From Candidatus Aenigmatarchaeota archaeon (lineage in GTDB: Archaea; Aenigmatarchaeota; Aenigmatarchaeia; QMZP01): 41,322 bases of DNA. A model generated the notes under the pieces. The model saw only the letters and a program-made list of their open reading frames with translations, was not told the DNA's origin and made no database searches. The stretch is from contig JAFCEK010000004.1 in assembly GCA_017609225.1 (NCBI GenBank), positions 1 through 41,322 of the forward strand, given 5' to 3'. Numbering within the stretch: position 1 is the first letter of the stretch; each line of letters opens with the position of its first letter. This document shows, one piece after another, positions 2,245 through 25,496 of this stretch. Made by a program: the position numbers and the translations under genes.

Positions 2245-2973
2245 TTAAACCCATAAAAAAGACAAAAGCCCTGCAATATTGTACAAAAAGAATCCTGCCA
2301 CTGTTTCTATAATCCCGAGTATCATGCCCCCTATCCCTGTTATTAATGCAAAAACAGGGCCAAGGAACAGCAGGAGAAGAAGGCATATTATCAGCACTGC
2401 AATGCCTTTTAATGATTTCTTCCAGTCTGAAAGGAAGGCTGAGAATGCTCCAACAGCAATGCCTCCGAGATGCGCGGTATTTGCTATGTCTGCAAATTCA
2501 GCAGGCTGGAAGTAAACAACCAGGGTTTCAAATATCAGAAAGGTTATTGCTATCATTCCGAGAGGAAGAGGAAAAACATAGAGGTGAATCATTCTGGCAG
2601 GATTGAGGAGCATTGCGGCCCCGAGCACCCCGAACATTGCACCTGAAGCCCCCACAACAGGGCTTGCGGATGTCAGCATAAACACTATATTGCCTATAAT
2701 GCCGGCTGCAAAATAAATCAGAAGGAATTTTTTTCCTGAAACATCCTCTTCCAGCACCCTGCCGAAAAAATACAAACCAAGCATATTGAAAAAGAAATGG
2801 GAAGCGCTCACATGGAGAAAGAGAGATGTGAATATTCTCCAGAATTCAATCAGGGTTCCCTGTGAAAAGGAAAAGAGCAGGAACACGGATTCCCGCATGG
2901 ATTCAGGCATGGAAAAAACAAGAAGGAAAACCAGAAGGTTTGCCAGCAACAGAATGTTTGTGTATCTTCCCAT
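2245..2973 (-). CDS. rhomboid family intramembrane serine protease
   Basis: Polytopic membrane protein with the catalytic GASGAMFG motif and a downstream HLGGIAVG histidine motif. Confidence 0.85.
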   Translation of the reverse strand: MGRYTNILLLANLLVFLLVFSMPESMRESVFLLFSFSQGTLIEFWRIFTSLFLHVSASHFFFNMLGLYFFGRVLEEDVSGKKFLLIYFAAGIIGNIVFMLTSASPVVGASGAMFGVLGAAMLLNPARMIHLYVFPLPLGMIAITFLIFETLVVYFQPAEFADIANTAHLGGIAVGAFSAFLSDWKKSLKGIAVLIICLLLLLFLGPVFALITGIGGMILGIIETVAGFFLYNIAGLLSFLWV

Positions 2974-3006
2974 ATGTTTATTATTAATCCAGGTAAAATA
3001 ATAAGT

Positions 3007-3657
3007 ATGAAAAAGCTTGGGGAAAGGGAAACATGGTCTTTGCTGAAGAGATGGAAAATACCTGTTGCTGAATACTTTCTTGCAAAAAACCCTGAGCAGG
3101 CAGCGGGGTTTGCAGAGAGGGTTGGCTATCCTGTTGTGCTGAAGATTTCCTCAAGGGAGATTATCCACAAGACAGAGGCAGGCGGGGTTGAATCCTGCCT
3201 GAAAAATGAAAAAGATGTAAAGCATGCGTTTGAACGAATAATGAGAAATGCCGGAAAGGCATATCCAAAGGCAAAAATTGATGGTGTGCTTGTGCAGAAA
3301 ATGATGGAGGGGCATGAGATAATTCTGGGAAGCAAGACAGACCCCCAGTTCGGGCCTGTGCTGATGTTCGGAATGGGCGGGATTTTTGTGGAGGTGCTGA
3401 AGGATGTTACATTCAGGCTGATACCTGTTACAAGAAAGGATGTAAGGGAAATGATTCATGAGATAAAGGGATATAAAATCCTCAAGGGAACAAGGGGGCA
3501 GAGGCCTGTGAATTTCAGGATGCTGGAAAACATCCTGCTAAGGGTTTCTGACATGGTCTGGAAAACAGAAAAGCCAGAAATAAAGGAGCTTGACATCAAT
3601 CCCCTTTTTGTTAATTCCAGGGAAGCTGTGGCTGTGGATGTAAGGATTCTGGTCTGA
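3007..3657 (+). CDS. acdB: ADP-forming acetyl-CoA synthetase beta-subunit-like ATP-grasp protein
   Basis: Resembles the ACD beta/ATP-grasp domain (GYPVVLKISS..IHKTEAGGV, GPVLMFGMGGIFVE, ELDINPL). The start is taken at ATG 3007 (MKKLGE) rather than track position 2974. No alpha subunit is nearby. Confidence 0.7.
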   Translation: MKKLGERETWSLLKRWKIPVAEYFLAKNPEQAAGFAERVGYPVVLKISSREIIHKTEAGGVESCLKNEKDVKHAFERIMRNAGKAYPKAKIDGVLVQKMMEGHEIILGSKTDPQFGPVLMFGMGGIFVEVLKDVTFRLIPVTRKDVREMIHEIKGYKILKGTRGQRPVNFRMLENILLRVSDMVWKTEKPEIKELDINPLFVNSREAVAVDVRILV

Positions 3658-10413: not shown

Positions 10414-10842
10414 TTTGTCACCTCGGTTATCCAGTTCAGGAAATCCCTGCTGCCCTTTATTTTCCAGCTTACAATGCATGGGATTTCATAACTGTGCATT
10501 TCCTTTGTCCTTTTTATCAGTATGTTTTCCAGCTCCTGTTTTGTTTTGAGTATTATTCCTGCCTCCCTGCATTTCTCAATCTTTCCCTTCCAGGGAAACA
10601 ATGATTCTATTTCAGGTATGATGTTTGCACATGCTGCCAGCTTTTCCTCAAGCAGCGCACTGGCTATATTCTCTGCTTCTTTTTTTCCTTTTGCTGTTAT
10701 GTAAATAATGTTGCCTCCGTATATCCGCCGACTTAAAGTCGGCGGTTTTCTTGGCGAGGCAACAGCTGTTGAACCAAGCTATACATCCACTGTTTGAAAA
10801 CAATGGTTTTCTCTGGTTCAGCATAATGACATGCCCGCTCAT
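10410..10842 (-). CDS. cutA: divalent-cation tolerance protein CutA, interrupted after codon 6-7 by a 113-nt element
   Basis: The ATG at 10842 overlaps the porD stop and opens MSGHVI. Downstream of the insert, a frame with no ATG/GTG/TTG start before the TTG at 10601 encodes IIYITAKGKKEAENIASALLEEKLAACANIIPEIES.FPWKGKIEK...HSYEIPCIVSWKI..DFLNWI. Removing 118 nt restores a 104-aa CutA. Confidence 0.7.
10710..10822 (-). mobile_element. 113-nt structured insertion element, copy A (in cutA), flanked by ATAAT direct repeats at 10705-10709 and 10823-10827
   Basis: About 90% identical to 18989-19099. It contains two long hairpins: gttgcctc...gaggcaac enclosing ccgccgac-ttaaa-gtcggcgg, and tgaacca...tggttca. 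Confidence 0.8.
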
Positions 10843-11135
10843 TTTTTATCCCCCTTTCTCAGCACTATTGCCTTTACAGGGCATTCCTTTATGCATACAA
10901 GGCAGCCCTTGCAGTAATCATAATCTATTACCGCCCTTCTCTTTCCTTCTTTCTCAACAATCTTTATGCCCCCTTCAGGGCAAACCCAGACGCACATACC
11001 GCAGCCTGCACATTTTTCAGTAATCTCCGGTGTTGAGCTTCTCCATGAACCTGTTTTGTTCTTCCTTGCAGAGCCTGTTTCTGTTATAATGCCTGCTGTG
11101 CTTGCTTCTCTTTCCTTATTCTCCTTCCGTGGCAT
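10839..11135 (-). CDS. porD: pyruvate:ferredoxin oxidoreductase delta subunit (2x[4Fe-4S])
   Basis: Two ferredoxin cysteine clusters, CAGCGMCVWVCP and CKGCLVCIKECP. ATG 11135 is preceded by GGAGG. It overlaps the porG 3' end. Confidence 0.85.
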   Translation of the reverse strand: MPRKENKEREASTAGIITETGSARKNKTGSWRSSTPEITEKCAGCGMCVWVCPEGGIKIVEKEGKRRAVIDYDYCKGCLVCIKECPVKAIVLRKGDKK

Positions 11136-15615: not shown

Positions 15616-15728
15616 GTTTTATTTTTAGGGAAGCGGGCTTATCTGATTTTTAGGCGCAAGCCGACCTGCATTAGCAGGTAAAATCAGAATATGCCCGCTG
15701 ATTTTTCCTTACTTGTCGCTTAAACTTT
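14857..15728 (-). other. 23S rRNA intron 1 (about 870 nt) carrying a LAGLIDADG ORF, in domain V
   Basis: A 12-bp terminal helix (agtttaagcgac at 14859-14870 with gtcgcttaaact at 15715-15726) brings the ends together. Flanking exon sequence resumes as ..GGCUCUUCCUGGACGUGCAGCAGCGUCCAAAG and GACGAAAGGGUGGAGGUGUUCACUC. Confidence 0.6.
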
Positions 15729-15786
15729 GGACGCTGCTGCACGTCCAGGAAGAGCCGAACCGACGGCGGAGAAGCATTGTACTGAA

Positions 15787-15816
15787 GACGGCTTCTTTCA
15801 ATCTGCACAAGCCGTC
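15787..15816 (-). repeat. mini-insertion family A copy
   Basis: gacggcttctttcaatctgcacaagccgtc, with terminal stem GACGGC/GCCGTC. Confidence 0.6.
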
Positions 15817-15973
15817 ATACATATGTACGAGGTCGATTTATCCTGCCTCTCTACTAATTCATCCGAACATATAGTTCGCCATTAGCCAATACCTACTTCT
15901 ACCGACGAGAAGTGTGGCGTATGGACTCTCGCCCGCCACGACTCCATTATCCCCAGGATAGCTTTTTCAGACC

Positions 15974-16003
15974 AACGGCTTTTTTCAATCTATCCAAGCC
16001 GTC
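15974..16003 (-). repeat. mini-insertion family A copy
   Basis: aacggcttttttcaatctatccaagccgtc. The loop is homologous to the copy at 15787. Confidence 0.6.
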
Positions 16004-16807
16004 ATGTGTTTTCTGACAGAGCAGGCCCCCATTATCAGCATAACCGCTTTTTAAACCAGTGTAAACGGCCAAGCTATTAATGAGGCACTGCGGATCGCTA
16101 GGCCACGCTTTCGCGTCAGGATTTCTTACTTTCGGAAATCCTATCAGGCTGGCTTTTGCCCTTACACTCTCTTCGAGATTTCTGACCTCGATGAGCCAAC
16201 CTTAGGGCGCTCCTGATATTAAGCGGCTGCTAAAGCTACAAACAGAGGCTTTAGAAGACGTATCTTATTAGGAGCGTACCGCCCCAGTCAAACTACCCAT
16301 CTGCCGCTGTTTCCGGCCGAGGCCGGATGAGCGATAAAGAAACGATAGGTTGGTGTTACACTTACGAGAATGGACAGCTTTTTTCAGTCAATGGAAGCTG
16401 CCATACTTTTCGCATTCCCCAGACCTGACGACCTGGGTTCGGCGCTCCCAACTACTCTATACAACCATTTCTTTATCACAACAACAGACTGTAGTAAAGT
16501 TCCATGGGGTCTTCGAGTGCCTGACTGCTTATTTCATTCATTACAAACAATCTGGCTTTCTCGTCCCGCTGAGGGTCTCCTGAGTATGCACAGGACAGTT
16601 AATTTCACTGGGTATCAGCCCGAGACAGTGGGGATCTCGTTAAGCCATTGATGCAGGCCGACAATTTCGACCAGAAAGACGACTTTCATATGCTAGAACA
16701 AGTCGTCAAACTGATAATCGGCAAGGGATTGCGCAACGGCTTTCTTCATCCTTTTTGTCAGATGACCGTCATTACGCTACCTTAAGACGGTCAGAGTCTG
16801 CGGCACA

Positions 16808-16835
16808 GACTGCCTTTAAACCAATGTTAGCAGTC
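16808..16835 (-). repeat. mini-insertion family B copy
   Basis: gactgcctttaaaccaatgttagcagtc. Confidence 0.6.
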
Positions 16836-18007
16836 ATGTGATACCGCCGGCGTTTATCAGGGCTTCATCCGGTTGAATCCGGACTTAACACACTGACACT
16901 GGCCAGGCCTCAAGAGCCATACAAGGCATTTCTGCTTAGCGGCTCCCTAAGTTTTTATTAAACAGTCGGACCCCCCTTGTTACTGAGACCTACCCTTCCC
17001 AACTTAGTCAGGAGAGTAGGCATCCCTTCTACCAAAGATACAGGACCAATTTGCCGAATTCCTTGGGCTGATTTCTCCCATTCACCTTCCCCCTAAAGGC
17101 CAATACAGCCTAACGGCTGGTTCTGGCTGTCTGACTTTCTCAGGGAGGGCACCATTCGCCGAAACCTTTCCCTTTTACATATTTCTTTCCAGAGATTTTT
17201 GAGAAAGGTTTAGTGACGGTTCTCGGTACGGATGAAAGAAATCCTTACCAGTTCCCTTTGTGCAGAACAACAGCCTGCGCTATTGAATCGGCTGTCATAA
17301 CCTTTTCACGGGTTCCAGGAATCAACCAAACCTCCTAAGGGAGGCCCTCACAACTTCACCTGTTTTGAGGCCCACGGCATTTATTCAGTAAACCAATGCC
17401 GGAAGCTTTCTCGCCATTATGGCACTCCACAGGCTTGATTGCTAGGATACAGCGAACTGTACAAGGTCTATCCCGAAACGTCAGGAACTGGTCCTGCGTT
17501 GCCGCACGTATTCTTTCAGGGCAGGAATATTAACCTGCTTCCCTTTCGGCAAACTCCATTCCTAAACCAACTGCTAGTTGCATTAACAGTGGGTTTGTTA
17601 GGGTTTGCCTTAGGACCGCCTTAGGCTGGCAATAGGAATTTATTTACTCTGGTAACATAAGCTTCCTAGAGCCATTAACCCTCAGCTGAATCGACCAGAA
17701 GCGACATATAAAAATAGTCGCCATGCTGTTAATCGTTGCTGAGGAACCCTGGCCCTGTACCTTCAAAGACGGCTTTGTTCAGCCAGCGTTAGCCGTCAAT
17801 TGATTTAGGTGGCTGAGATTTTCACCCAGCTTTCGCTGCTACTATCAACAAGATTCTTGTTTTCATGAGGTCTACCCGAACTCACATTCAGGCTTCTGCC
17901 CCCATGAAACACCTCCCTACAATATTCCGGACACAGTCCGGAATTCAGGGTCTCGGTAGCGCATTTAGTCCCATCCATTCTCAAGGCTCCCAACCTCGGC
18001 GGGTGAG

Positions 18008-18634
18008 CTATTTTGCGGCCAAGATGCCGATTTTTCTTTTTTTGGAGGGATTGAAAATTGGTATATTTTTTATGAAATTTTTATTGTCTTTTTTTGATAC
18101 CCTAAGAACAAATCTTGGATAATTCCCATTTTTATTTTTATATATTCCAACATTTCCTGAGCTTATATTTAATTTCCTAAGAAGCCTTTTTATATCATTT
18201 AAAGGTGGACATTCTAAACCATTCCAGGACAGATGAAATCTTATCTGATGTGTTCTTATATCAAATCCACCCTCAGCATCCCAAAAACCGCCTATGTACC
18301 ATTTAATAATTTCTTTATTTCCCGTATCCATTAAAATCTTCGGGGTTTTCCAGGTAATTTGTGATTTCAATGGATGATCAAATTCTTTCTGTATTTGTAT
18401 TGCTATTTTTTTGGAGTAAATTCTTAGATATGGCGTTCCTTTTCTAGGTTTACAAAATATTTGATTTCCGCTGAACGTTTTTTTCAATAGTTTTGATAAA
18501 AAATTCAGCCATTTTGTGTCTTTACTGTAGAAAGTTATATAATGGTGAATTTTTCCTTGTTTGTCACTATATCTAAGAACTGAACCATCTCTAAGTGCTC
18601 CAAGCAAATAGGCCAAATTTTTGGTGAGCTCCAT
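18008..18634 (-). CDS. LAGLIDADG homing endonuclease (double-motif)
   Basis: Motifs LAYLLGALRDGSV and IGGFWDAEGGF. The stop TAG is formed by the first exon nucleotides (UAGCUCAC). Confidence 0.9.
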   Translation of the reverse strand: MELTKNLAYLLGALRDGSVLRYSDKQGKIHHYITFYSKDTKWLNFLSKLLKKTFSGNQIFCKPRKGTPYLRIYSKKIAIQIQKEFDHPLKSQITWKTPKILMDTGNKEIIKWYIGGFWDAEGGFDIRTHQIRFHLSWNGLECPPLNDIKRLLRKLNISSGNVGIYKNKNGNYPRFVLRVSKKDNKNFIKNIPIFNPSKKRKIGILAAK

Positions 18635-18679
18635 AGTACTATTTTATTTGATTACTTAAATGTTTAACGGCATCCTGAC
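18011..18679 (-). other. 23S rRNA intron 2 (about 670 nt) carrying a LAGLIDADG ORF, in domain II
   Basis: It splits ..GCAGCCAUCAUAUAAUGAGUGCGUAA | UAGCUCACCCGCCGAGG (compare E. coli AGCGUAAUAGCUCACUGG). The ends carry an inverted repeat, ggatgccg/cggcatc. Confidence 0.6.
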
Positions 18680-18988
18680 TTACGCACTCATTATATGATG
18701 GCTGCCTCTAAGCCAACGTTCCCGCTGTCTGAGGTTGAAAACGCTTTTCCTCACTTAATACGCAATCCTAAAACGACTGCTAAAACTGTTGCAAGTCTGC
18801 TTTGCTAACAAAGCAGTCCTTTCACTGAATTAGCAGACGCTTTTTTAGGGACCTTAACCCTGATCTGGGTTTTCACCCTTTCGGAAAACGAGCTTACCCC
18901 GTTTCCGCACTCCCAGCTTCTGTGATGGTAAGGTATTCAGAGTTTGACAAGGCAACTGGGGAATGAGAGCTTGACGGCTTAAAATAAT

Positions 18989-19099
18989 GTTGCCTCCGTG
19001 TATCCGCCTACTAAAGCCGGCGGTTTTCTTGGCGAGGCAACAGCTGTTGAACCAGAACCATACATCCACTGTTTGAAAACAATGGTTTTCTGGTTCAAC
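18989..19099 (-). mobile_element. 111-nt structured insertion element, copy B (in 23S), flanked by ATAAT direct repeats at 18984-18988 and 19100-19104
   Basis: About 90% identical to 10710-10822, in the same orientation relative to the host transcript. It is nested in the loop of a GACGGCTT...AAGCCGTC mini-insertion (18973-19118). Confidence 0.8.
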
Positions 19100-20507
19100 A
19101 TAATTTATGCAAGCCGTCGGAGCCTTTTCTCCCCTTGGTTACCTAATCAGTAGCTCTACCCCCTTACCTGTCTCAGCTGAGGCTGAACTTAGGTTCATTT
19201 CGGGAGGAACCAGCTATCACCCCACTCGATTAGCCTCAAAACCAGCTGCTCCTGCTGTCTGGTGCAAGCAGCATGGTATTTTTACCCCTAGTCCCAGGTC
19301 ACGCAAGCGATTTGCCCACCGGCTGCCAATGCTTGGCTTTAGCAGCCGGTTTTGAATCTCAGCAATGCTTCGGGCCTCCATCCCGGTTTCCCGGGACTTC
19401 ACCCTGCCCAGGACTAGATCGTGGGGTTTCGGGTCTCATCCCTGTGACTCGGGCGCTTTCACACCCAACCGCCTTGCCGAAGCTGCGCGGTCTTTGCTTT
19501 CGCTACGACTGGTTTCCTTAGTCTCGCCACAGAAATGAACTCCTTGTCGCGTGTTTCAAAACGGACGATATAACCCGACAACCGGCTCTCGTACCAGGCC
19601 CTTGCGGGCTTTCCTTGAACCGGATTTCTGCAGGCCATATCTACCTGTAGCTGCATGGTTTCAGGTTCTTTTAATGTCGCAAAGCGATATTGCTGACACA
19701 GCTCGTAAACTATCGCTTTCCGATTTCATCTCCTGTTAAGGATGCTTTTCAGCTTTCCCTCACGGTACTAGTGCGCTATCGGACTCAAATTATATTTAGG
19801 ATTGGGAGTTATTGTCTCCCGTATTCCTGCTGGATATCCGACCAGCAGTACTCTGGCACTTAGTAAGGTTGCCTGATTACAGTCACAACAAATTCTTTAT
19901 GACTATAACTATTTGGCCTTACTAAGTGATACATGGTATCATCCTTCTTCCGTTCTCCTACGGGGCTGTCACCCTCTATGGCACTGCTTTCCAGCAGACC
20001 TCGGATTGGGAAGTTAGGAAGAGCCCAGTTCCAAACCCCACATCCGCACAGGCTTTCGCCAGCGCGTTCGGTTTGTCCTGTTCCCTTTTCGGTCGCCCCT
20101 ACTAAGGGAATCGCAATACATAACCATTAAATGGCTATGTACTGTTTTGCTTTCTTTTCCTGCGGTTACTAAGATGTTTCAGTTCACCGCGTGCTCGCTT
20201 GCTGATGCAAGCGTCCAAAAGGACGGGAAGTCCTATCCGAACTGACTGCTAATATTACGAAGTTTTATCTGTATTAGAAGTCAGTTATTCGGTAATCCCG
20301 GGTTCAATGCATGCCTGCGGCTACCCCGGGCTTACTGCAGCTTGCCACAACCTTAAAGAGCAAGACAGCCAACTGGAGTTAATTGCATAGTAACCCAAGC
20401 TGTCATGCCTTTCTTCGATATTTGAGCCAAGCCATCCACCATACAGCCTTGCTGTCCTTATAACTAACCCCTGCCTTACTCAGTTTGTAAAGAAAGGGTT
20501 TTTTGTC

Positions 20508-20955: not shown

Positions 20956-21103
20956 TGGACTGGGTGGGATGCCCATACCAATCTTGGCTGGTTCCTTTCA
21001 GGTTAAGATTGGTATTTTGAACCCACGGCCTCTGCCTTGCAAGGGCAGCGATCTTTAATGGCACCCGGCAGTCACAGGGAAACCACCACTGATCTACCAG
21101 CCC
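20956..21103 (-). tRNA. tRNA-Ala(UGC) in the 16S-23S spacer, with two non-canonical introns
   Basis: Exons assemble to GGGCUGG UA GAUC AGUGGU..AAA GAUC G CUGCC CUUGCAA GGCAG AGGCC GUGGG UUCAAAU CCCAC CCAGUCC A. The G3:U70 Ala identity pair is present. There is a D-loop intron at about 21057-21084 and a 59/60 intron at 20970-21015 with an 11-bp internal stem. Confidence 0.85.
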
Positions 21104-21194: not shown

Positions 21195-21237
<43 letters not shown>

Positions 21238-21809
21238 TATCGGACAACGAGATGATTATAGATTCTCCTGAATGGTTTGTGTGTTGCACTTTTATGTCAT
21301 TCTATAGCAAAGCTATAGTCATATTGCCCATCTCGCCGTCTTACGACTTAGCCCACCTTGCAGAACCATGACTTGATCTCACCAAAATGGTGAGAGCTCG
21401 CCAAAACTGCAGACCGGCTGCTAATACCATCAAGCAGTTTTTGCTTGTTTTAGCAGTCAGTTTTCCACTCGGTTGGCTTGACGGGCAGTGTGTGCAAGGA
21501 GCAGGAACATATTCGCCGCTAGATTCCACAGATAGACCGCTTAGAACAAAAAATGCAGTCAACCTATGATGACCAGCGACTATTCCCCAGAAAGACTGCT
21601 TTGCCAAATCAGAATCAGCAGTCAATCTACTAGGGATTTCGGCTTCATGAGGGCGGGTTACAGCCCTCAATCTGGACTGGGGTTGGTTTTGAGGATTAGC
21701 TTCCCTTTCTGCGAAGCAGGCAGCCTGAACAATCATTATAAGCTGCCATGTCTTTCAGGGTCGCATCCCATTCCACAGCAAGATGGCTTTGTTTAGCCGG
21801 AATTAGCCG

Positions 21810-22520
21810 TCATGCTTTTGTACCAACCATTGTAGGCCGCGTCTGGACCCAAATTGGCAAATTTTGGGCTTTCCTGATTTTATCAGGGTGATTAAATCCG
21901 ACATTCTCCAAGTATTTTTTGACTTTTTTAAATCCAATAATTTGAAAACCAAACATGTTTTTATATTTCCAGATGCTTGGATTTACCCCAAATCTTTGCA
22001 ATAGTTTGACAATATCATCTCTTATAATTTTATTTGAAACATGGAATCCAATTCTTGGATATGTATAAGTTTTATTGGTTCGTTTAACCTTTTTGATAGT
22101 TATCCAACCTTCTGAATCCATCCATCCTCTTAAATATTCTTTTATTGTATCATTTGATGAACTGAAGATTGGTTTCGGCGTCTTCATAAAAAAGGTCTTA
22201 TCTTTTGTTGGAATTTGTAATTTTTTGTAAATTTCAACGGCTTGTTTTGAGCAAAGTCTTGTCCTGTAAGTTATTTTTCCTTTCTTTGTTTTCAAACTAG
22301 AAATCACTATCCTGCCTTGAAATAATTTCTCTAATCTTGGTTTAATTATTTTTTGATGGAACTCAAGGCATTTGTCAGTTATTGAAATCCTATATTCTCT
22401 TGATTTTGGATTTTCTGTAATTGCTCCATCACCACCAATAAGACCTATTGTATATGCAAAGATTGGAGTAATTGCGGTTTCGGTTTCGTTTTTATCAAAT
22501 TTTAATTTCATTTGAATCAC
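21810..22520 (-). CDS. LAGLIDADG homing endonuclease (double-motif)
   Basis: Motifs AYTIGLIGGDGAI and LRGWMDSEGWI. The last roughly 14 codons read through into 16S exon sequence. Confidence 0.9.
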   Translation of the reverse strand: MIQMKLKFDKNETETAITPIFAYTIGLIGGDGAITENPKSREYRISITDKCLEFHQKIIKPRLEKLFQGRIVISSLKTKKGKITYRTRLCSKQAVEIYKKLQIPTKDKTFFMKTPKPIFSSSNDTIKEYLRGWMDSEGWITIKKVKRTNKTYTYPRIGFHVSNKIIRDDIVKLLQRFGVNPSIWKYKNMFGFQIIGFKKVKKYLENVGFNHPDKIRKAQNLPIWVQTRPTMVGTKA

Positions 22521-22705
22521 CGATTAAGCTAGCAAATTTTCCCCTGTTCTTTTATGTATTGATTTTGGAAGATAAAAGAACAATAGGGATGGGCTGTATT
22601 GGGCGATTCAATATGCTGGTGTTTAAAACGAAACCGTTTACCCATTTGCCAATCTGGTGTATCCCAGCGGATTCAGAGCATTGCCGATCTTCACTGATAT
22701 AATCA
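21851..22705 (-). other. 16S rRNA intron (about 855 nt) carrying a LAGLIDADG ORF, just 5' of the GGGCUACACGCG..CUACAAUGG block (around E. coli position 1200-1215)
   Basis: Upstream exon is ..GACGGCAGGUCCGUAAAUCUUUAC and downstream exon is GGGUCCAGACGCGGCCUACAAUGG. The boundaries are approximate. Confidence 0.5.
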
Positions 22706-24141
22706 GTAAAGATTTACGGACCTGCCGTCGACCGCTCCTTCCTCTGGCTCATCGCCAGCGGTCCCCTATGAGTACTGGACCTCAAAAGAAGCCCGTGGTA
22801 ACATAGGGCGCGGGTCTTGTTCGTTACGACACTTAAGTCGACACCTTTACCGAAACCTTTTCTTCGGCTTTTCGCTAAAAAGGCTTTCACGGCACGAACT
22901 CTATCGTCCTGAAAGGACTCAGCTTCTGAAAGTTCCTTTCAAGATGACGACGGCCATGCACCACCTCTCAGCTTGTTTGGTAAGACCATCAGCCTGACCT
23001 TCAGTTCAGGTTGACTGCCAATGCAGTGTGCAGTCTGCTATGATAACACAGCAGTCTTATAACCGCATCAGCAGACAAACTTTCTGCTGTCGCCGCTGGT
23101 AAGGTTAAAGGCCGACTGCTAAGACAATACACGAACTGCTTTAATACCAAGCAGTCCCTTAGCCGTTTTAGCAGTCAGACTTTCCTCGCGTTGAATCGAA
23201 TTAAACCGCAGCCTCCACCCCTTGTGTGCTCCCCCGCCAATTCCCTTAAGTTTGATGCCTTAGGCATAACTCTCCGGCTATGCTGAAGATTCATCCTTGC
23301 GAACGTACTCCCCAGGTGGCCCGCTTAACGGTTTTCCTAGGACTCTGGCAACCCCCTTAAGATTGCCAATGTCTAGCGGGCATTGTATCCGCAGACTGAC
23401 GACTATATATAAGTCGTCTGTCTTTTACGGCTGGGACTACGCGGGTATCTAATCCGCTTCGCTCCCCCAGCTTTCATCCCTCACCGTCAGATCCGTTCTA
23501 GTCGAGCGCCTTCGCCACTCGCCTGAAAAGAGCTGTCTGGCTTGTTTCCGGTAAATCATGCAGCTCAAATCATCAGGCGGTCTTCCAGGGATTATAAGAA
23601 TATAAGCCTGTTCTTTTCTTCCCCTAAAGGGTTTCTTTAGAAAAGAGGGCTTTTTACCCTTACCCCTGGAATACCCTCGACCTCTCCCGGTCTCAAGTCC
23701 TGCAGTATCCCCAACAAGCTCCATAGTTAGCTATGGAATTTCATTAGGAACTTGCAGGACCGGCTACGAATGCTTCAAACCCAATAAAAATGGTCACCAC
23801 TTGCGGCGCGGGTATTACCGCGGCGGCTGGCACCCGTTTGGTAGCCCTGCTGCTTATATAACGATTCAAGCAGTTAAGGACTCTTACCCACCGCTTATTC
23901 GCTGAGCTTTTTGGACTCAGCAAAAGCTCCCTCAAAAAATGAGAAAGCACTCCAAATCCCTCCATCACGCTTTTACACCACCCCGGCTTTGTTTTCATTA
24001 TAACATATTGCATCTATCAAGCCGAAAGTGCTCGCGCATTGTGGAATTTTCGCGCTTGCTGCGCCCCGTAGGACCTGGATTCATGTCTCAGAATCCAACT
24101 CCGGGCTTCCTCTCTCAAGGCCCGTACTGAATCTATAGCAC

Positions 24142-24171
24142 AACTGCTTATTTCAATCTGCCAAAGCAGCC
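24142..24171 (-). repeat. mini-insertion family A-like copy in 16S
   Basis: aactgcttatttcaatctgccaaagcagcc shares the ttcaatct loop core with the 23S copies. Confidence 0.5.
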
Positions 24172-24442
24172 ATGTTTTATAGCCTCGCCAGGAATGTAAA
24201 AGAACAGCCCATTCAATATATACGGGCTGTATGCTCTCTTTACCCTGGCAACAAGCTAATCAGCCGCAGTCTTATCCTTGGGCGCCGAAGCTTTGGGTAA
24301 TAAAACATTCCAGTATTTATTACCTGTCTGGTATTAGCCCCAGTTTCCCGGGAATGGACAGAAAGACGGCATTATACAATTAAAAGCCGTCAGACTTTTA
24401 TCCCAGACCCAAGGGCAAATTAACTACGTGTATCCAGCAGAA

Positions 24443-24471
24443 GACAGCCTGTTCAATCAAAAAAAACCGTC
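24443..24471 (-). repeat. mini-insertion family A-like copy in 16S
   Basis: gacagcctgttcaatcaaaaaaaaccgtc. Confidence 0.45.
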
Positions 24472-24594
24472 ATCTGTTACTGAGCGATTCGCCGAGCTTG
24501 CGCTCTGACTTGCATAGCTTAGTCGGATTCGGATAGCAGTGACCTCCGGCGGGATCAACCGGAATTTGTGGCGGGTTTGTCCTCCTTAGAAGGA

Positions 24595-24838: not shown

Positions 24839-24890
24839 GATTGCTGGGTGCTGTGCTTGCATGTTTTTGGGTATTTATTCAGTACAAAAG

Positions 24891-25113
24891 GGCCGCGACT
24901 GGGATTTCCATTTCACCCGTTGCCTTTGAATATGCCTTTCTTGGGTGAGACCTGGACCTTCTTTCGCGAAAGAAGGGGTCGGTTTTCGAACCCAGCTCAA
25001 GGGATGTCTGCCAGGCCTTTATTTGGAAGCCTTAGCTCCTTTTTGCCTTCAGGCTTTTTCAAGAAAAAGCCTGACCACAGTCCCTTATGTTAACCAGCTA
25101 CACCATCGCGGCC
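24891..25113 (-). tRNA. tRNA-His(GUG) with encoded G-1 and two introns
   Basis: Exons assemble to G(-1) GCCGCGA UG GUGU AGCUGGUUA ACAU A AGGGA CUGUGGA UCCCU UGAG CUGGG UUCGAAU CCCAG UCGCGGC C73. There is a canonical 37/38 intron at 25006-25074 (69 nt) and a 59/60 intron at 24905-24984 (80 nt). Confidence 0.85.
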
Positions 25114-25140: not shown

Positions 25141-25148
25141 TTTATAAA
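25141..25148. promoter_or_regulatory. palindromic TATA box TTTATAAA centred between divergent tRNA-His and tRNA-Leu
   Basis: Its centre (25144.5) coincides with the midpoint (25144) of the two mature 5' ends at 25113 and 25175, about 27-34 nt from each. Confidence 0.35.
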
Positions 25149-25174
25149 GTATAAAGAATTATTAAAGATACTGT

Positions 25175-25461
25175 GCGGGGGTACCCAAGCGCCTTTTTCC
25201 ATGCGAATATGCAAGCGCCAGGAAAAGAATTGGGAATGGCCAAAGCCCTGCGGCTACAGGGGCAGGACTTAAGCTGCTGGCTTAAGTGCTTTGAGAAACC
25301 TCTGGGTTTCAGTGAAGAAACAATGCCCTAAGAAATCCTGTGGCTTAGAGGCTCCCTCATGTAAATGAGGCTGCCAGGCAATGCCTTCGCGAGTTCGAAA
25401 GGCTGACGGCTGGCACTGGCTGAACAAGGCCGTAGCAGTTCCGGTTGTCTCGCCCCCCGCA
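25175..25461 (+). tRNA. tRNA-Leu(UAA), class II, apparently with four introns
   Basis: Acceptor GCGGGGG/CCCCCGC plus A73. D-stem CCC/GGG (25184-86/25259-61). Anticodon arm CAGGA CUUAAG..A UCCUG, variable arm GGC-AAU-GCC UUC, T-arm GCGAG UUCGAAU CUCGC. The extra sequence lies at four sites: the D-loop (about 25191-25248), 37/38 (25274-25334), the variable region (about 25342-25376) and 59/60 (25400-25447). Confidence 0.75.
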
Positions 25462-25496
25462 TAAGATTTATTTGGCCTAAAGCAAAGGATGAGAGC

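Follow-up and report, generated by a model that had tools for sequence, protein, structure and literature searches.

Five BHB introns probably interrupt the tRNA-Leu(UAA) gene of an Aenigmatarchaeota archaeon

The window analysed here, a stretch of 41,322 nucleotides of contig JAFCEK010000004.1 (assembly GCA_017609225.1), comes from a tiny uncultured archaeon of the Aenigmatarchaeota (DPANN) and carries at 25175-25461, on the forward strand, a tRNA-Leu(UAA) gene of 287 nt that divides into six exons (84 nt) and five introns (203 nt). The ends of the gene are exact: GCGGGGG (25175-25181) pairs with CCCCCGC (25454-25460) to form the 7-bp acceptor stem, A73 lies at 25461, both as the original prediction had them, and CCA is not encoded. 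Once the five inserts are taken out, ARAGORN recognises a clean 84-nt tRNA-Leu(taa) in which 23 of 23 cloverleaf pairs are intact; the predicted class II gene with several introns is thereby confirmed, along with its CUUAAG.A anticodon loop, GCGAG/CUCGC T-stem and UUCGAAU T-loop. The variable arm, which had been read as GGC-AAU-GCC, is instead GGC-UUAGU-GCC, identical in every orthologue. Inserts of 61 nt at 37/38 and 48 nt at 59/60 are found where they were expected, and that in the variable region is likewise present, with a size of 33 nt and not about 35 nt. The D-loop insert of about 58 nt, in contrast, is not a single unit; the suspicion that it might hold two introns proved right, as introns of 47 and 14 nt lie on either side of TGGCCAA. 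Since the orthologue junctions and a fully paired central helix (4/4) set each of these two introns apart, the count of four introns given in the original prediction becomes five (Table 1).

Table 1. Features of the tRNA-Leu(UAA) locus, in positions of the window.
Feature	Coordinates	Strand	Remarks
TATA-like box TTTATAAA	25141..25148	+	probably an archaeal promoter, lying 27-34 nt before tRNA position 1
Exon 1, 15 nt	25175..25189	+	acceptor 5' strand, U8 A9, D-stem 5' strand CCC, A13 A14 G15
Intron 1, 47 nt	25190..25236	+	D-loop, about Sprinzl 15/16; central helix CCCA/TGGG; bulges AG|C, AA|T
Exon 2, 7 nt, TGGCCAA	25237..25243	+	carries D-loop G18 G19
Intron 2, 14 nt	25244..25257	+	D-loop, about Sprinzl 21/22; central helix GGCC/GGCT; bulges AA|A, AC|A
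Exon 3, 16 nt	25258..25273	+	A22, D-stem 3' strand GGG, G26, anticodon stem 5' strand CAGGA, C32-G37, anticodon UAA
Intron 3, 61 nt	25274..25334	+	canonical 37/38; central helix CTTA/TAAG; bulges AG|C, AA|A
Exon 4, 14 nt	25335..25348	+	A38, anticodon stem 3' strand, variable arm first half (TGGCTTAG)
Intron 4, 33 nt	25349..25381	+	variable-arm loop; central helix GCTT/AGGC; bulges AG|A, AA|T
Exon 5, 18 nt	25382..25399	+	variable arm second half, T-stem 5' strand GCGAG, T-loop TTCGAA
Intron 5, 48 nt	25400..25447	+	T-loop 59/60; central helix 3/4 pairs (one T.T); bulges AA|A, TG|T
Exon 6, 14 nt	25448..25461	+	U60, T-stem 3' strand CTCGC, acceptor 3' strand CCCCCGC, discriminator A73

In the raw DNA of the locus, no tRNA is found by ARAGORN, with or without its intron mode, or by Rfam, either at the gathering threshold or at E<=10. 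When subsets of the inserts were tried, ARAGORN never called a tRNA with intron 1 or intron 2 left in place, and with intron 3 or intron 4 left in it read one long anticodon-region intron. The six exons follow in tRNA order on a single strand within 287 nt, which does not correspond to a split or circularly permuted layout. Group I or group II self-splicing introns find no match among the Rfam intron families at either threshold, and the inserts measure only 14-61 nt. Upstream, 75 nt fall within a 79%-identical match, and the CTTTTATAAA motif also precedes the orthologue in G015. TTA makes up 8.7% of the leucine codons in the long open frames of this genome, and a search for another Leu(UAA) locus in the assembly, which is 78% complete, found none; the present locus is probably the decoder of UUA codons. 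A further ARAGORN call of 'tRNA-Leu(taa)', at C77:5161-5247, belongs in fact to a tRNA-Ala(CGC) that has G3.U70 and carries an intron of about 15 nt.

Fifteen orthologues in related genomes, our gene included, form a series with one intron (G055, G037, G060 and G001), two (G009 and G044), three (G028), four (G015, G005 and G017) or five (G020, G013, G008, G048 and the present gene), and the uninterrupted stretches of members at each of these levels were used to set the junctions. With the gene's own mature sequence as the alignment template the two D-loop introns separate, whereas the template from G001 had merged them. Spliced in silico, 14 of the 15 orthologues are called tRNA-Leu(taa); the product of G020 is not, because its last junction was misaligned. 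The 37/38 intron occurs in all 15, and each of the four non-canonical inserts is missing from at least one member. Intron 1 is absent in L007 and L013, to whose start exon 1 is identical, and in L002 and L005 an intron occupies the same site with a 4/4 central helix; the copy in G015 is 71% identical to ours. Intron 2 recurs in G015, again with 14 nt, and in G008, with 16 nt. Intron 3 can be aligned across families, and intron 4 is precisely absent in the closest relative, G015, where TGGCTTAGTGCC runs uninterrupted. The 59/60 site is occupied in 10 of the 15 genes, mostly with a 4/4 central helix and a 5-bp outer helix.

The original prediction had proposed folding the exon-intron junctions in search of BHB or relaxed motifs, and these are indeed found. 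At the orthologue-defined junctions the central 4-bp BHB helix of introns 1 to 5 forms 4, 4, 4, 4 and 3 of its 4 pairs, while among 804 neighbouring register pairs, taken as the control, 4/4 is reached in 1.4% and at least 3/4 in 13.4%. No shift of the register by 1-6 nt yields 4/4 at any of the five junction pairs; for intron 1, the neighbouring shifts give at most 2/4. The motifs are relaxed (hBH or HBh' forms), in that the flanking helices are partly absent: introns 1 and 4 lack the outer helix and intron 3 lacks the inner one, and the flanking helices of intron 1 are weak. Elsewhere, the outer helix of intron 3 is the anticodon stem extended by one pair (6 bp), that of intron 5 is the 5-bp T-stem, and inner helices are formed by GC/GC with a 3-nt loop in intron 2, by GGC/GCC (3 bp) followed by a CCTCAT/ATGAGG hairpin in intron 4, and by a long stem with ACGGC/GCCGT in intron 5. 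Because of the gaps in the flanks of introns 1, 3 and 4 and the T.T mismatch in intron 5, only an enzyme of broad specificity would be expected to cut at these motifs. A single nested fold of -92 kcal/mol accommodates all five motifs together with the acceptor stem. The unconstrained optimum of the naked precursor reaches -114.7 kcal/mol, with a z-score of only -2.0, and leaves out most of the BHB motifs; such a naked-RNA fold is no guide to protein-assisted splicing. A BHB-like pairing that brackets the whole gene (25150/25476; central helix 4/4, outer helix 5, inner helix 4) was treated as chance, since it lies in AT-rich promoter and terminator sequence that is probably outside the transcript. 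That the locus is a genuine class II gene, which matures only if several BHB introns at canonical and non-canonical sites are removed, is supported, and we consider it likely that a functional tRNA-Leu(UAA) gene is here interrupted by five BHB introns, the splicing itself being predicted from the sequence.

The count of five could be lower if the D-loop held a single intron of about 60 nt (25190-25249) and GCGGCTACA (25250-25258) were the true 3' half of the D-loop, so that the mature loop would read AAGGCGGCUACA rather than AAGUGGCCAAA. This arrangement is the one chosen by spliced alignment to the G001 template, its product is still called tRNA-Leu(taa) by ARAGORN, and GCGGCTAC does resemble the D-loop of G001, CGGTCAAC. 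Its junctions, however, pair at only 1/4 of the central helix and have no flanking helix, where the two-intron solution reaches 4/4 twice. Moreover, L005, L007, L008 and L013, in which intron 2 is absent, have the heptamer TGGCCAA contiguous with its flanks as TGGCCAA(A/C)GGGG, without the GCGGCTACA piece, and the 16-nt intron 2 of G008 keeps the motif with a longer inner helix of 3 bp, its H3 strand GGTT still pairing. The exon-like look of the intron strand (GGCT, GGTT) follows from its need to pair with the palindrome GGCC in the exon heptamer. We consider four introns improbable and retain two introns in the D-loop.

The count could also be higher, if the 47-nt intron 1 or the 61-nt intron 3 were a nested pair removed in two steps. 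A direct repeat, AAGCGCC, at 25187-25193 and 25213-25219 lies inside or adjoins intron 1, several alternative registers within this intron reach 4/4 (25203/25236, for example), and the length of the D-loop inserts in G013 and G048 (74-123 nt) points to accretion. Against this, the inner candidates have weak flanks and are unnecessary to explain the structure, and the intron 1 copies of G015 and G020 align over their full length as one unit; although nested introns cannot be counted from sequence alone, we regard their presence here as quite improbable, and keep to five introns. That the locus is instead a decaying, insertion-riddled relic, with a working Leu(UAA) gene in the unassembled 22% of the genome, is very improbable: the incomplete assembly (78%) and the invisibility of the locus to standard tRNA finders would fit such a pseudogene, but the cloverleaf is fully paired after splicing, identity to G015 is 94% in the exons but 57-79% in the introns, each insert has an intact splice motif at its register, nearly all the tRNA genes recovered from this genome are similarly interrupted, and the five-intron orthologues of four other genomes show compensatory T-stem changes. 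The pairs concerned are 60:76, 61:75, 62:74 and 63:73 (gene numbering), at which both sides change and pairing is kept in 14 of 14 orthologues, in most of them across a 59/60 intron. The conservation of the exons and the compensatory changes in the T-stem indicate selection on the tRNA.

The gene does not stand alone in its genome. Rfam-grade tRNAs number only 5 in 0.88 Mb, and standard tRNA finders recover 3-5 genes here and 4 in the nearest relative, G015. Genome-wide spliced alignment of 44 templates from the intron-poor G001 allowed the reconstruction of at least 12 further tRNA genes, which contain 1-4 introns each; as this method also yields spurious 'introns' of 200-800 nt by joining far-off acceptor halves, only compact, ARAGORN-confirmed genes were counted. 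On these reconstructions, multi-intron tRNA genes are the rule in this genome, nearly all those found resembling tRNA-Leu(UAA). Since standard finders recover almost nothing, automated annotations of the phylum understate its tRNA sets; a tRNA annotation gap in DPANN genomes has been flagged before (PMC5829648).

A candidate for the enzyme that would process these transcripts is encoded at G000:C27:4959-6140. This splicing endonuclease of 394 aa aligns over residues 10-394 with residues 12-387 of PDB 4FZ2 chain A (E 1.8e-99), the epsilon2 endonuclease of ARMAN-2 (Ca. Micrarchaeum; PMC3239211, PMC3488258, PMC12397907), and consists of an N-terminal PF02778 domain and two PF01974 stretches. The HMMER alignment shows that it keeps both the Y160/K161 specificity loop (GIYK) and the catalytic triad Y236/H251/K282 (FRIY, VHSKH, GVKKT), the roles of these residues having been assigned in the ARMAN-2 enzyme (PMC12397907). 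We classify it as a full-length ARMAN-2-type (epsilon2) endonuclease of predicted activity. In the literature consulted, the epsilon2 type is described only from Micrarchaeota (PMC5829648), and full-length homologues of the present enzyme, at 43-47% identity, come from records titled Micrarchaeota, whereas here the type is found in Aenigmatarchaeota, in 57 of the 60 relatives searched. No epsilon2 gene was found in G024 and G007, two assemblies of 74-80% completeness whose tRNA counts, 19 and 21, are intermediate, and G001, with 47 tRNA hits, gave only a short alpha-like endonuclease match. The link between endonuclease type and tRNA disruption is suggestive only, G001 being the clear case. 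An RtcB ligase is encoded on C11 (E 2.5e-158).

We envision that the 287-nt precursor would be transcribed from the AT-rich promoter directly upstream, after which each exon-intron pair would fold into a 3-nt bulge, a 4-bp helix and a second 3-nt bulge. The epsilon2-type endonuclease would cut between the second and third bulge nucleotides at ten sites, RtcB would join the six exons (15, 7, 16, 14, 18 and 14 nt) into the 84-nt tRNA, and CCA would be added after ligation. This order of transcription, cleavage and ligation is a proposal; under it, one tRNA for a common codon would need ten precise cuts and five ligations.

The introns themselves look like small mobile cassettes, a reading that draws on their variable site occupancy among relatives, on unrelated sequences at the same site and on one cassette common to the 23S rRNA gene. 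When each intron was compared with the genome by BLAST at E<=0.05, only the introns themselves matched; at a looser threshold, the 30-nt hairpin core of intron 5 agrees with an insert in the 23S gene at 26 of 30 positions, which confirms the resemblance of the 59/60 intron stem to rRNA mini-insertions that had been pointed out in the original prediction.

Arrangements of this kind have precedents. In Thermoproteales (Pyrobaculum, Thermofilum, Caldivirga), tRNA genes can carry several BHB introns each, up to three (Sugahara et al. 2007, 2008, cited in PMC4090602). These share with the present gene the combination of canonical and non-canonical sites (D-loop, variable region, T-loop), the relaxed motifs, an endonuclease of broad specificity and mobile-like introns; they differ in having an (alpha-beta)2 endonuclease and at most three introns, where the gene described here has an epsilon2 enzyme, five introns and a 7-nt internal exon, in a DPANN host. 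Three per gene, quoted in the original prediction as the reported maximum, is still the figure in reviews (PMC4090602, PMC3728597) but has been overtaken by PMC11291895. In the Asgard groups Atabeyarchaeia and Freyarchaeia, 92-95% of tRNA genes are interrupted and more than half have multiple introns (Valentin-Alvarado et al. 2024, PMC11291895), and Supplementary Data 4 of that work lists four observed introns in four genes, Trp-CCA, Arg-TCT, Ile2-CAT and Leu-GAG. There the phylum is a different one and the tabulated maximum is four, as against five here, with five-intron orthologues in at least four further genomes. Nuclear tRNA genes of the red alga Cyanidioschyzon merolae also hold as many as three BHB-type introns each, in the D-loop, variable arm and T-loop, and RT-PCR showed that these are removed stepwise (PMC3728597); that system belongs to a eukaryotic nucleus and its splicing is experimentally verified, while ours is archaeal and its splicing is predicted. 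Literature searches on tRNA introns in Aenigmatarchaeota, and on archaeal tRNA genes with four or five introns, returned no report of five. Five introns are one above any count found in the literature, and four would be no record. The gene is not new in kind, as BHB introns, the epsilon2 endonuclease and RtcB are already known; an RNA of 84 nt with five introns and an exon of 7 nt would nevertheless push BHB splicing beyond its documented limits. Together, the series from one to five introns, the unrelated cassettes at the same site, the cassette common to the 23S gene, and a sister genus with ordinary tRNA genes, where a short alpha-like endonuclease was the only one found, form a natural experiment that bears on intron spread and on the co-evolution of endonuclease specificity with introns.

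Intron 3, at the canonical site, has features of its own. It holds a second, conserved CUUAAGU that pairs with the anticodon loop in an 8-bp helix with a covarying closing pair, and downstream of this element come NUGA, a covarying hairpin and RUGA, a succession reminiscent of an internal D'/C' motif. Neither a terminal C box nor a terminal D box is present, and no Rfam C/D family matches the (+) strand at the locus. The guide-like element and NUGA are separated by 2 or 4 nt, and with this variable spacing the predicted target would not be constant. In Euryarchaeota, the tRNA-Trp intron reportedly works as a box C/D guide that directs the 2'-O-methylation of C34 and U39 (Clouet d'Orval et al. 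2001). Intron 3 likewise combines anticodon-loop pairing with a D'/C'-like motif, a likeness that goes no further than resemblance, and it differs in lacking both the terminal C/D boxes and a fixed spacing. It is conceivable, though in our view unlikely, that intron 3, with its D'/C'-like kink-loop, is more than a passive insert and directs the 2'-O-methylation of U34 or C32 in the anticodon loop ahead of splicing, serving in cis either as a half-mer box C/D guide or as a chaperone that binds L7Ae; if it did, such a role would explain why intron 3 is never lost while the other four introns vary.

The tRNA-Leu(UAA) gene escapes standard searches of the unspliced DNA: ARAGORN called no tRNA in the whole window, and Rfam returned two rRNA genes and nothing else there at the gathering score, with no tRNA-like match around the locus even at E ≤ 10. 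The cloverleaf is therefore visible only once sequence is removed, as the original prediction had held. Read from the sequence, the gene begins with GCGGGGG and ends with CCCCCGC-A. Fourteen orthologues were recovered by DNA search of 60 relatives and extraction of full genes, and a fifteenth came from genome G001; four of them (G055, G037, G060 and G001) carry the canonical 37/38 intron alone and define the mature sequence. Compared with these, the window gene contains five inserts (I1–I5; table) instead of the four initially proposed, two of them in the D-loop, where they are separated by a 7-nt exon bearing G18 and G19. In four relatives (G009, G020, G013 and G028) this exon is joined directly to its flanks. 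G015, the closest relative (79% identical over the 5′ part), carries I1, I2, I3 and a 59/60 intron; it reads TGGCTTAGTGCC without a break, so that I4 is precisely absent there. The same G015 sequence corrects the variable arm, first given as GGC-AAU-GCC, to GGC-UUAGU-GCC.

Features of the window and related loci elsewhere in its genome. In the bulge column a slash marks the splice junction.
Feature	Position	Strand	Length (nt)	Site or location	Central helix	Bulges
tRNA-Leu(UAA) gene	25175-25461	+	287			
I1	25190-25236	+	47	D-loop, about 15/16	CCCA/TGGG, 4/4	AG/C-AA/T
Exon TGGCCAA	25237-25243	+	7	between I1 and I2		
I2	25244-25257	+	14	D-loop, about 21/22	GGCC/GGCT, 4/4	AA/A-AC/A
I3	25274-25334	+	61	37/38	CTTA/TAAG, 4/4	AG/C-AA/A
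I4	25349-25381	+	33	loop of variable arm	GCTT/AGGC, 4/4	AG/A-AA/T
I5	25400-25447	+	48	59/60	TTCG/CGGT, 3/4	AA/A-TG/T
LSU gene	15630-20463	-	4834 (Rfam model, 2987 positions)			
Candidate intron in 23S gene	17757-17804	-	48	23S gene	4/4; outer 2, inner 4	
tRNA-Ala(UGC) gene	20956-21103	-		16S-23S spacer		
SSU gene	21196-24565	-	3370 (Rfam model, 1478 positions)			
tRNA-His(GUG) gene	24890-25112	-		divergent from Leu gene, upstream of 16S gene		
Pairing around tRNA-Leu gene	25145-25160 with 25465-25485			junctions 25150/25476	4/4; outer 5, inner 4	
tRNA-Leu(UAG) gene	contig C75, about 10640-10916	-				
Third Leu-like gene	contig C58, about 2900-3131	-				

Removing all five introns in silico leaves 84 nt that ARAGORN reads as a clean class II tRNA-Leu(taa). 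Among the partial removals tried, no tRNA was called whenever I1 or I2 stayed, and with I3 or I4 left unspliced ARAGORN read one long intron. The bulge–helix–bulge (BHB) motifs were laid on the orthologue-defined junctions in a register in which the final 6 exon nt form 4 helix and 2 bulge positions, and likewise at the intron 3′ end. Shifting both junctions jointly by 1–6 nt never reached 4/4 central-helix pairs, and of 804 neighbouring register pairs, 1.4% reached 4/4 and 13.4% reached 3/4 or better; as the product of these control-register rates, the chance expectation for all five junctions is about 1e-8. The outer helix is the anticodon stem (6 bp) for I3 and the T-stem (5 bp) for I5, the inner helices of I2 and I4 have 2 and 3 bp, and I1 has almost no flanking helix beside its bulges; with the flanking helices incomplete, the motifs are therefore relaxed forms. 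At -92 kcal/mol, a single nested structure accommodates all five together with the acceptor stem. Most of them are absent from the optimal fold of the unconstrained precursor (-114.7 kcal/mol), as is to be expected of motifs that depend on a protein. Orthologue introns gave 4/4 at nearly every junction in the same test, and the in-silico products of 14 of the 15 orthologues were called tRNA-Leu(taa); that of G020 was missed because the aligner misplaced its last junction. The locus is a real tRNA-Leu(UAA) gene, interrupted by five BHB introns and very probably functional, its splicing being predicted from sequence.

The D-loop could instead lose a single 60-nt intron, which would leave four in the gene, and ARAGORN also accepts that product; however, the central helix would then form only 1 of 4 pairs and the resulting D-loop is unlike that of the orthologues. 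The supposed D-loop piece mimics the exon solely through the palindrome GGCC at the exon core, and we consider this arrangement unlikely. Introns nested within one another, which would take the count beyond five, we regard as very unlikely. A pseudogene is at odds with the pattern of conservation and highly improbable. Selection acts on the five-intron gene as a tRNA: its exons match those of G015 at 79/84 positions, the introns common to both are 71%, 79% and 74% identical, and the two 59/60 introns, at 57%, are effectively unrelated. Every pair of the acceptor, D and anticodon stems and of the variable arm is preserved in 14 orthologues, and 4/5 T-stem pairs vary on both sides yet stay paired (61:75 occurs as CG, AT, TA and GC). 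In long open frames 8.7% of the leucine codons are TTA, and no further Leu(UAA) locus was found in the 78% complete assembly of the window's genome (G000). A second ARAGORN "Leu(taa)" there was rejected, as it is actually tRNA-Ala(CGC).

I3 is the only intron kept in 15/15 orthologues and is conserved across families (orthologue loci L002-L018 and L063). It always carries a second CUUAAGU that pairs with A31–G37 of the anticodon loop in an 8-bp helix, whose eighth, closing pair is altered on both sides in 6/14 sequences. There follow NUGA, a hairpin whose stem varies between genomes and stays paired, and RUGA. These elements resemble an internal D′/C′ kink-loop with an anticodon-loop guide, which we offer as a lead only; the missing terminal C box and the variable spacing of the guide-like element both count against a guide reading.

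A cassette of CCCTTTT, a hairpin and AAAAGCGTTCACGGAAAA occupies the D-loop, variable-loop or T-loop site depending on the genome (loci L002, L005, L009, L011, L013, L014, L017 and L018), occurs twice in the G015 gene (D-loop and T-loop), and looks like a mobile intron family. The I5 hairpin differs from it; the 30-nt core of this hairpin is 26/30 identical to an insert in the 23S gene, which the 48-nt BHB candidate there can bracket. Judging by this match, one cassette appears to sit in both a tRNA and an rRNA gene. Both rRNA genes greatly exceed their Rfam models in length (table), and their low bit scores are consistent with many insertions.

Genome-wide (0.88 Mb, 79 contigs, the window being contig C53), ARAGORN found three tRNAs and Rfam five above cut-off. 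Spliced alignment of G001 tRNA templates, counting compact genes with ARAGORN-confirmed products, rebuilt at least 12 further interrupted tRNA genes: Arg-UCU with about four introns; Pro-UGG, Trp-CCA, Ser-GGA and a Tyr-GUA with three each; Met, Ala-UGC, Thr-GGU and Val-CAC with two each; and three more with one each. Leu(UAA), with five, has the highest count found in this genome. Orthologues with five introns are likewise present in G020, G013, G008 and G048, and the 15 orthologues use seven sites: 15/16, 21/22, 30/31, 37/38, two in the variable arm, and 59/60.

The genome encodes the RNA ligase RtcB and, on contig C27, a splicing endonuclease of 394 aa, in which an N-terminal domain accompanies two stretches of the catalytic domain. 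Residues 10-394 align (E 1.8e-99) with PDB 4FZ2, the epsilon2-type enzyme of ARMAN-2, which is documented to act on a broad range of substrates (PMC3239211, PMC3488258). The alignment retains Tyr160-Lys161 of the ARMAN-type specificity loop and the catalytic Tyr236, His251 and Lys282, whose roles were shown in PMC12397907. Full-length homologues occur in 57 of the 60 relatives searched. Among sequence records, the nearest full-length homologues (55-74% identity) are titled Candidatus Aenigmatarchaeota; Micrarchaeota, the only group from which the surveyed literature describes the epsilon2 type, have them at 43-47%. In G001 (same family, 88% complete, 6 contigs) no epsilon2-type gene was found, a short alpha-like homologue (E 1.9e-15, residues 158-286) being the sole match. 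G001 has 47 Rfam tRNA matches, mostly uninterrupted or single-intron; the other relatives tested have 2-28. That ordinary tRNA genes go with only a short alpha-like match here is suggestive, but it is the case of a single lineage.

For Crenarchaeota, algal nucleomorphs and Cyanidioschyzon, the reviews and primary papers surveyed put the highest count at three introns per gene (PMC4090602, PMC3728597), and three had been taken as the reported maximum. That premise is outdated, since four observed introns are tabulated for Trp-CCA of Atabeyarchaeia-2 and for each of Arg-TCT, Ile2-CAT and Leu-GAG of Freyarchaeia (Valentin-Alvarado et al. 2024, Supplementary Data 4, PMC11291895). The window gene, with five, differs from the first set (at most three) and from the second (up to four). 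Within the literature searched we found no report of five introns in one tRNA gene, nor of tRNA introns in Aenigmatarchaeota; incomplete DPANN tRNA sets point to undetected disrupted genes (PMC5829648). The five-intron gene belongs to a known class, of which it is an extreme case, and the literature searched contains no description of this class from its lineage.

Several neighbouring and related loci were also noted. tRNA-His(GUG) carries two introns: one of 69 nt at 37/38, whose central helix pairs 4/4 between an outer helix of 7 and an inner helix of 9, and one of 80 nt at 59/60, also 4/4, with an outer helix of 6. Its in-silico product is tRNA-His(gtg) by ARAGORN; the His–Leu pair is found in G015 too. 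The spacer tRNA-Ala(UGC) has introns of 30 and 46 nt, both 4/4, and ARAGORN confirms its product. The BHB-like pairing around the whole tRNA-Leu gene falls within AT-rich flanks and probably reflects chance. tRNA-Leu(UAG) shows four introns by eye, in the D-loop (61 nt), at 37/38, in the variable loop and at 59/60; the first opens with AAG/CGCCTTTT, as does I1. The third Leu-like gene is interrupted three times, twice in the D-loop, at both of the sites used by the window gene, and once in the variable loop; its apparent anticodon loop, CUAAGGA, would give the anticodon AAG, and an archaeal tRNA with A34 would be unusual.
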